In this document: piece by piece, positions 19,504 through 19,760 of the stretch | Numbering within the stretch: the stretch's first letter is position 1 | How the letters are laid out: the number at the start of each line of letters is the position of its first letter | Virus record (IMG/VR): IMGVR_UViG_2740892274_000002 | Strand: one strand, 5' to 3' | Source of the DNA: a virus | Lineage: Duplodnaviria > Heunggongvirae > Uroviricota > Caudoviricetes | DNA length: 19,760 nucleotides | Translations under genes and position numbers: made by a program | Notes under the pieces: generated by a model | What the model was told of the DNA's origin: nothing | Database searches by the model: none | What the model saw: only the letters and a program-made list of their open reading frames with translations

Positions 19504-19671
19504 ATCATAACGTCCGGTTTCTTCCGTGCCAGAACCGGACTCGCTGGCATGATGAAATATGTGTACCCGGTAACCCCGGTGTGCATCGTTTTTGATTATT
19601 CCCGCACACTCGCGCAGAAGGAGTTCCCCGTCGGGCTACGGTCTCTGTTAATACGGGAATACGGCGACGAT

Positions 19672-19760
19672 TGGATTTGCCCCTATATTTCCAGACATCT
19701 GTTATCACTTAACCCATTACAAGCCCGCTGCCGCAGATATTCCCGTGGCGAGCGATAACC
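19672..19760 (-). mobile_element. IS2 (IS3 family) terminus, right inverted repeat; element continues beyond the window end
   Basis: The sequence from 19672 is the reverse complement of what I recall as the IS2 right end (coding-strand ...GTTAAGTGATAACAGATGTCTGGAAATATAGGGGCAAATCCA). The transposase C-terminus reads on the minus strand. Confidence 0.8.
19683..19760 (-). CDS. insD: IS2 transposase (InsD/OrfB) C-terminal fragment; 5' part beyond window
   Basis: Minus-strand translation of 19683-19760 gives GYRSPREYLRQRACNGLSDNRCLEI*, the characteristic C-terminus of IS3-family DDE transposases. Confidence 0.8.
   Translation of the reverse strand, partial: GYRSPREYLRQRACNGLSDNRCLEI

Follow-up and report, generated by a model that had tools for sequence, protein, structure and literature searches.

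The window, by which we mean the whole stretch of 19,760 nucleotides analysed here, covers the late morphogenesis arm of a prophage of the lambda type, carried on the minus strand and running by increasing coordinate from J, I, K, L, M and H up to the portal, A and Nu1 genes. The tail-tip gene J is cut by the start of the window and contains two runs of N (1229-1491 and 2601-2813), which also produce spurious long ORFs such as the one at 751-2358 on the plus strand. The portal gene (14167-15768, minus strand) is intact, and is followed by the gene for the terminase large subunit A (15968-17893, minus strand; Pfam GpA_ATPase and GpA_nuclease, with an exact protein match) and by that for the small subunit Nu1 (17868-18413, minus strand), the first late structural gene downstream of cos, which is identified from its ORF, from a Pfam Phage_Nu1 match in an identical context and from the annotation of relatives. 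On the other side of cos lie two intact plus-strand genes, antisense to late transcription: a YlcI/YnfO (DUF3950) gene at 18802-19035 (Pfam PF13132, E = 2e-20) and a DUF1398 gene of the YbcV/lambdap78 type at 19093-19503 (Pfam PF07166, E = 3e-43; also annotated in relatives). From the end of the DUF1398 gene it is 168 bp to an insertion sequence, IS2, in which the window ends.

The cos site is organized as in lambda, with cosQ, cosN and cosB upstream of Nu1 and A and with flanks that are nearly identical to those of lambda. On the minus strand it reads CAGGTTACG, then the 12-nt cohesive end GGGCGGAAGGCG (18602-18591), then CGCGGGTTTTCGCTATTTATG (a longer or alternative excerpt of the right side reads CGCGGGTTTTCGC). 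The cohesive end itself differs from the lambda 12-mer GGGCGGCGACCT at six positions. The same variant is found in E. coli 582, in E. coli E400634 and in the phage record YDC107_1, in differing contexts, while 51 other lambda-like loci that we compared carry the canonical cosN; judged from these sequences, GGGCGGAAGGCG is probably an alternative cohesive-end allele. The distance from the start of IS2 to the cos nick is 1,070 bp, in agreement with the figure of about 1.07 kb given for it in the initial annotation of this DNA.

From position 19672 to its end at 19760, the window is identical at 89 of 89 positions to the right end (reverse complement) of the IS2A copy of E. coli K-12, taken from the annotated mobile element at 381260-382590 of NC_000913.3. 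The match sets in exactly at 19672 (TGGATTTGCC), which is the annotated boundary of the element, and translation of the minus strand gives GYRSPREYLRQRACNGLSDNRCLEI followed by a stop, the C-terminus of the IS2 transposase, just as the initial annotation had written it. What is visible of this IS3-family element in the window is the right inverted repeat, which in IS2 is about 41 bp long (PMC3299598) with the ending GGGGCAAATCCA, together with the last 25 codons and the stop codon of the transposase gene (InsD/OrfB). The transposase is read in the direction of the phage late genes: at locus L132, one of the loci that share this junction, InsC and InsD share the strand of holin, Nu1 and A. The window thus ends in a genuine IS2 copy of the ordinary kind.

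We reached genomes that share the junction through the exact terminase large subunit of the window, a protein found in 7,057 blocks of the collection. An identical 60-nt junction is present in four independent public assemblies (loci L131, CP104423.1; L132; L133, CP041322.1; and L134), of which the first three are megabase-scale chromosomal records and the fourth is a further contig that, like the window, ends inside IS2. The end of the window at this point is probably a break of the source contig inside the repeat. Beyond 19760 the initial annotation expected an intact element, and the three chromosomal records carry one: it is 1,331 bp long, full length, and its far end reads GGGGGCCAGTCTA. 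The copies of L132 and L133 show four mismatches to K-12 IS2A. At L132 the element encodes products of 121 residues (HTH_Tnp_1) and 301 residues (HTH_21, rve and rve_3), and the copy of L133 is alike, with ORFs matching HTH_Tnp_1 and rve.

The proposed target-site duplication can be read directly from the same three records. They have GGCGACGAT, then IS2, then ACGATACAGCGC, so that ACGAT stands on either side of the element; in E. coli 582 (locus L001), which is free of the IS, GGCGACGAT passes directly into ACAGCGC and ACGAT is present in a single copy. The window-side copy of the 5-bp duplication is at 19667-19671. CP041322 is a genome of Shigella sonnei (PMC8209639), and the spread of the insertion in this species is seen from an ORF of 69 residues that exists only at the junction: it has been deposited as a hypothetical protein on 341 contigs named S. 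sonnei or Shigella, and partial or truncated forms labelled S. sonnei are found on about 80 more. The insertion is for this reason a widespread S. sonnei feature. Among 5,426 complete E. coli genomes we found no copy of the junction, the matches ending at 19671 and an 80-nt probe giving no contiguous full match; a scan of a species-representative genome collection with both junction patterns gave no match either.

The surroundings of the site in IS-free relatives and in S. sonnei place the insertion between the lysis genes and cos, as the initial annotation had supposed from the window. In the relatives the order is holin, lysozyme, Rz, KilA-N, a hypothetical gene, the insertion site, DUF1398, YlcI, cos and Nu1. 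Read in the late direction, the S. sonnei prophage has Q, a porin gene (antisense), IS1 (antisense), holin, lysozyme and Rz, followed by a KilA-N protein gene, a hypothetical gene of 85 residues, IS2 with insC and insD in sense, the antisense DUF1398 and DUF3950 genes, cos, and then Nu1, A, W, B and onward. The structural genes are in good order: Nu1, A, W and B and those from C to H are intact in L131, a contig with an identical tail protein I has in intact form the genes from C to a full-length J as well as those for the side tail fibre and Tfa, and the corresponding long structural ORFs are open in the window.

Other mobile elements were seen in or near this late region. The IS1 copy between the porin moron and the holin gene (3402-4100 in L131, 3402-4099 in L132) means that the Q-dependent late operon in S. 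sonnei bears two insertion sequences. At two S. sonnei loci (L133, 12126-21926; L135, 3905-13702) the head genes W and portal B of this prophage contain, or are directly followed by, a P4-like or PICI-like satellite. Its products include an integrase, AlpA, Bro-N, a D5-type primase and SSB, along with homologues of capsid E and decoration proteins that are specific to the satellite. In E. coli LR-71-1 (locus L002, 5742-6896) a related prophage has an independent IS3-family insertion at a different site, adjoining a shortened KilA-N gene, and the lysis-to-cos region therefore appears to accept IS insertions repeatedly.

A plus-strand ORF with its start at 19549 was described in the initial annotation as running into the IS end after about 41 codons without a clear ribosome-binding site, and on this basis as an interrupted gene. 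The description is accurate: the last base of codon 41 is 19671, and the sequence that precedes the ATG, GGACTCGCTGGC, contains no Shine-Dalgarno sequence. The frame then continues into IS2 to give a chimera of 69 codons (19549-19758, plus strand), 41 from the flank and 28 antisense to IS2, and the 69-residue "hypothetical protein" of the databases is an artefact of gene calling across the IS end. (It once received the name "Arginyl-tRNA synthetase" in UniRef, a name that is unsupported.) The step from there to an interrupted gene is not supported. In IS-free relatives the ORF has 54 codons; PGAP leaves it unannotated in RefSeq genomes, and searches of the 54-residue form against Pfam and PHROG returned no family. 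In the copies of lambda, DLP12 and the 933W-type phages the ATG is missing, and -1/+1 indels together with an in-frame TAG disrupt the reading frame. Across 120 loci the start codon is ATG, GTG or TTG at differing positions, or is absent, and where the frame is open the N-termini are unrelated. Using 27 distinct sequences in the same register (from 104 loci), we found no codon-position bias and no excess of synonymous changes: the 25 variable sites are distributed 10, 6 and 9 over codon positions 1, 2 and 3, and 17 of them change the amino acid. With respect to ribosome-binding site and start, conservation of the frame, substitution pattern and protein family, the ORF in each case lacks what a gene would have, and it is probably a chance open frame across highly conserved DNA. 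If the frame entering IS2 is such a chance frame, it follows that probably no protein was lost through the insertion.

The conserved DNA in question is a non-coding block of lambdoid phages, of which the window holds positions 19512-19671, homologous to lambda 46867-46997. It begins with a hairpin, TCCGGTTTCTTCC...CCGGA at about 19512-19538 (in general form TCCKGTTTCTTCC-N9-CMGGA), and after a variable stretch has a core of about 105 nt from about 19573, which ends in GGGAATACRGCGACGATACRGCGCA. IS2 cuts the block 8 bp before its edge and leaves the rest joined to the cos side; in the IS-free E. coli 582 the block occupies 5113-5280 of L001 and extends 8 bp past the IS2 site. Homologues lie between lambdap78 (DUF1398) and bor in lambda, in the ybcV-borD spacer of DLP12 and in the segment between bor and terminase of 933W-type Stx phages. 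In at least 120 viral contigs the block has a single orientation and is found without exception in the interval from Rz to the terminase genes; this position is constant whether it is bor, DUF1398, YlcI, Nu1 or a small terminase of the 933W type that adjoins it. The core is nearly invariant over these contigs (at least 120), lambda, DLP12 and the Stx phages, despite their differing flanks.

Several candidate identities for the block were considered and set aside. The prophage sRNAs AgvB, AsxR and Pas sit downstream of PR' or near Q and the lysis genes, and are already in Rfam. The bor promoter does not fit, because the lambda motif TGTTTAGGGTTTGTTTA, which we take to be a PhoP-box-like motif, is downstream of the block and the block persists where bor is absent. 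Coding on the minus strand is likewise rejected: a 77-codon "Rz-like spanin" ORF overlaps the block in 933W-type phages, and has stops in lambda, DLP12 and E. coli 582. Rfam 15 gave no match to the block at the gathering score in the window or in L001, and none at E values up to 10 over L001 4900-5800; the block is absent from Pfam as well. Off the block the Rfam scan gave chance matches, namely mir-458 on a terminator-like hairpin and a partial Proteo-phage-1.

Folded as a single sequence, the block is not more stable than shuffled sequence, with z = -0.67 for the minus strand and -0.99 for the plus strand. The consensus fold is somewhat better for the late-sense strand (-21.9 kcal/mol) than for the other (-14.5 kcal/mol), and has an invariant long-range helix in which ATCGT..TATTCCCG pairs with CGGGAATA..ACGAT. 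This helix has four one-sided changes, all of which give G.U pairs in the late-sense strand, and the hairpin shows a compensatory change from CCGG/CCGG to CCTG/CAGG in 6 of 22 sequences. The covariation term of the consensus fold is essentially zero (-0.06 kcal/mol).

The initial annotation also allowed for late-gene expression from an IS-derived promoter. For the -35 element of the right inverted repeat to work, a -10 hexamer is required at a spacing of 17 bp (PMC3299598, PMC9330008), and by our reading of the flank, ATCGTCGCCG, there is no -10-like hexamer at about this distance: the nearest candidates, TATTCC and TATTAA, are about 9 and 17 bp too far away. A hybrid promoter leading out of the right repeat is unlikely here. 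A promoter and terminator scan around IS2 found no more sites than in shuffled sequence. At the left-repeat junction (L131, 6868-6897), the flank has CTGACA 18 bp upstream of a TAGACT at the tip of the left repeat, which together match 9 of 12 positions of the sigma-70 consensus and would read into IS2 in the late direction; this is a consensus match only.

The account that we favour, and consider likely as a whole, is an ordinary one. In it, a complete IS2 entered a lambda-like prophage of S. sonnei by the transposition usual for the IS3 family and duplicated the 5 bp ACGAT. Its target was a non-coding spacer that, in the sense of the late transcript, is upstream of cosN by 1,070 bp and separates the lysis cassette (holin, lysozyme, Rz, KilA-N and one hypothetical gene) from the antisense DUF1398-YlcI pair, and no gene was lost. 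After induction, Q-modified polymerase from PR' would enter the element at the left inverted repeat, transcribe orfA and orfB in sense, and leave at the right inverted repeat toward cos and Nu1. Because polymerase in this state ignores both Rho-dependent and intrinsic terminators, the insertion should be neutral or mildly polar. The read-through and the neutrality are expected from the general properties of Q, and neutrality would fit the many S. sonnei assemblies that carry the insertion beside an otherwise intact morphogenesis module.

Four other explanations have to be weighed against this account. The junction could be a contig end misjoined to a repeat during assembly, as might be suspected of a window that stops 89 bp into a multicopy sequence and contains two runs of N. 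However, three megabase-scale chromosomal records have the same junction together with the complete element and the duplication on either side of it, the junction is on one further contig as well, and its own ORF is on 341 contigs, so that we regard an artefact as extremely improbable. Another possibility, the one preferred in the initial annotation, which called the insertion likely polar for late transcription, is that IS2, standing between the lysis genes and cos, has a strongly polar effect, with Nu1 to J unexpressed and the prophage either defective or dependent on an IS promoter. Shigella genomes are known for IS-driven gene decay, and the presence of a second element, IS1, in the same operon points the same way. 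The annotation was also right that the late transcript must cross the insertion to reach the structural genes: in lambda, p79 scores as essential when a dCas12a roadblock is placed there, because of polarity on the structural genes (PMC10695390), from which a true transcription stop at the insertion site would be lethal for particle production. Yet the known polarity of IS2 is due to Rho-dependent terminators (PMC3737525), and the late transcript is the product of Q-modified polymerase, whose elongation complex bypasses intrinsic and Rho-dependent terminators alike (PMC4914094). The downstream morphogenesis genes are without decay, and a fusion promoter at the right end would lack its -10 element. 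A related case is offered by IS629, also an IS3-family element, at a position downstream of stx2 that is inside the late operon. Encapsidated, DNase-protected DNA was still obtained after ciprofloxacin induction from Stx2a phages that had between one and three copies of IS629, including one immediately downstream of stx2 (PMC4587872). A strong polar block is thus unlikely, and the claim of likely polarity is not supported. The prophage may still be defective for reasons apart from IS2, since there is an IS1 ahead of holin and, in some strains, the portal gene contains a satellite.

The other two alternatives concern what the insertion struck. The 54-codon ORF could be a genuine gene for a small protein, a moron located downstream of DUF1398, and be inactivated by IS2, which substitutes its last 13 residues. 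Most variants other than those of lambda type keep the frame open through the block, one variant differs by a 9-nt gap that keeps the frame, automatic annotation calls the ORF a hypothetical protein in the phages Kati, Chlobot and PhiR49_1, and it has been deposited from at least 1,000 contigs. However, an open frame is expected by chance in DNA this conserved, and the missing Shine-Dalgarno sequence, the start and N-terminus that vary or are absent, the indels and TAG of the lambda-type copies, the even spread of mostly amino-acid-changing sites and the lack of both a Pfam or PHROG family and a PGAP call make a small gene very unlikely. It is also possible, though to our minds doubtful, that the block is an RNA or DNA element with a function of its own, set between the lysis module and the packaging module, and that IS2 parts it from its upstream context with some regulatory consequence. 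Such an element might act in cis as a part of the late mRNA, or as a DNA site that organizes exchange or expression at the border of the lysis and head genes; we hold this reading of the block, too, to be rather improbable. The near-invariant core between differing flanks, the fixed orientation and position, the compensatory change in the hairpin and the four G.U-compatible changes in the helix argue for it. Against it stand the lack of an Rfam family, folding z-scores of about -0.7 and -1.0 and the minimal covariation, as well as the circumstance that IS2 spares all but 8 bp and keeps the block attached on the cos side. In addition, it has been shown as a general matter that lambda and defective prophages often exchange homologous DNA where modules meet, and the high identity of the block could reflect recent recombination of this kind (PMC3945230). 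Should the block have a function, the insertion would not have to be neutral, as IS2 cuts 8 bp from its edge, and S. sonnei would then carry a naturally occurring mutant of the block.

We return to the ordinary insertion of IS2 into a spacer as the preferred reading, and note that it matters little in itself. IS2 and the IS-laden prophages of Shigella are textbook material, and the insertion is already in public S. sonnei genomes, its junction in hundreds of assemblies, so that nothing about it is new in kind. It does have practical uses: the junction is a candidate S. sonnei-specific marker, given its absence from the complete E. coli genomes, and the case cautions against taking an IS in a Q-dependent late operon to be inactivating before expression has been measured. 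The non-coding block between lysis and packaging genes is the only thread that we think worth a further look.

The element itself does not differ substantially from K-12 copies of IS2 such as IS2A: the window has the same 89 bases, and the genomes sharing the junction have 1,331 bp with four mismatches, ORFs of the insC/insD type and a 5-bp duplication; what is new is the site, a prophage of S. sonnei instead of the K-12 chromosome. The block that it struck is homologous to DNA in the lambdap78-bor spacer of lambda (46753-47041) and in the ybcV-borD spacer of DLP12. The present prophage lineage differs in that bor is absent and other sequence follows the block; in lambda and DLP12 the plus-strand frame is broken. 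With regard to transcription, the nearest parallel is IS629 in inducible Stx2a phages of E. coli O157:H7, where an IS likewise lies within a Q-dependent late unit in many strains (PMC4587872); there the IS is a different one, its site is downstream of stx2 and upstream of the lysis genes, and encapsidation of DNA after induction has been shown for those phages. In galEP3 (gal3), the classical reporter of Rho-dependent polarity, the very same element stands between a promoter and its downstream genes, but it is met there by unmodified polymerase, which Rho terminates (PMC3737525), whereas the polymerase that would be relevant in the S. sonnei prophage is the one antiterminated by Q.
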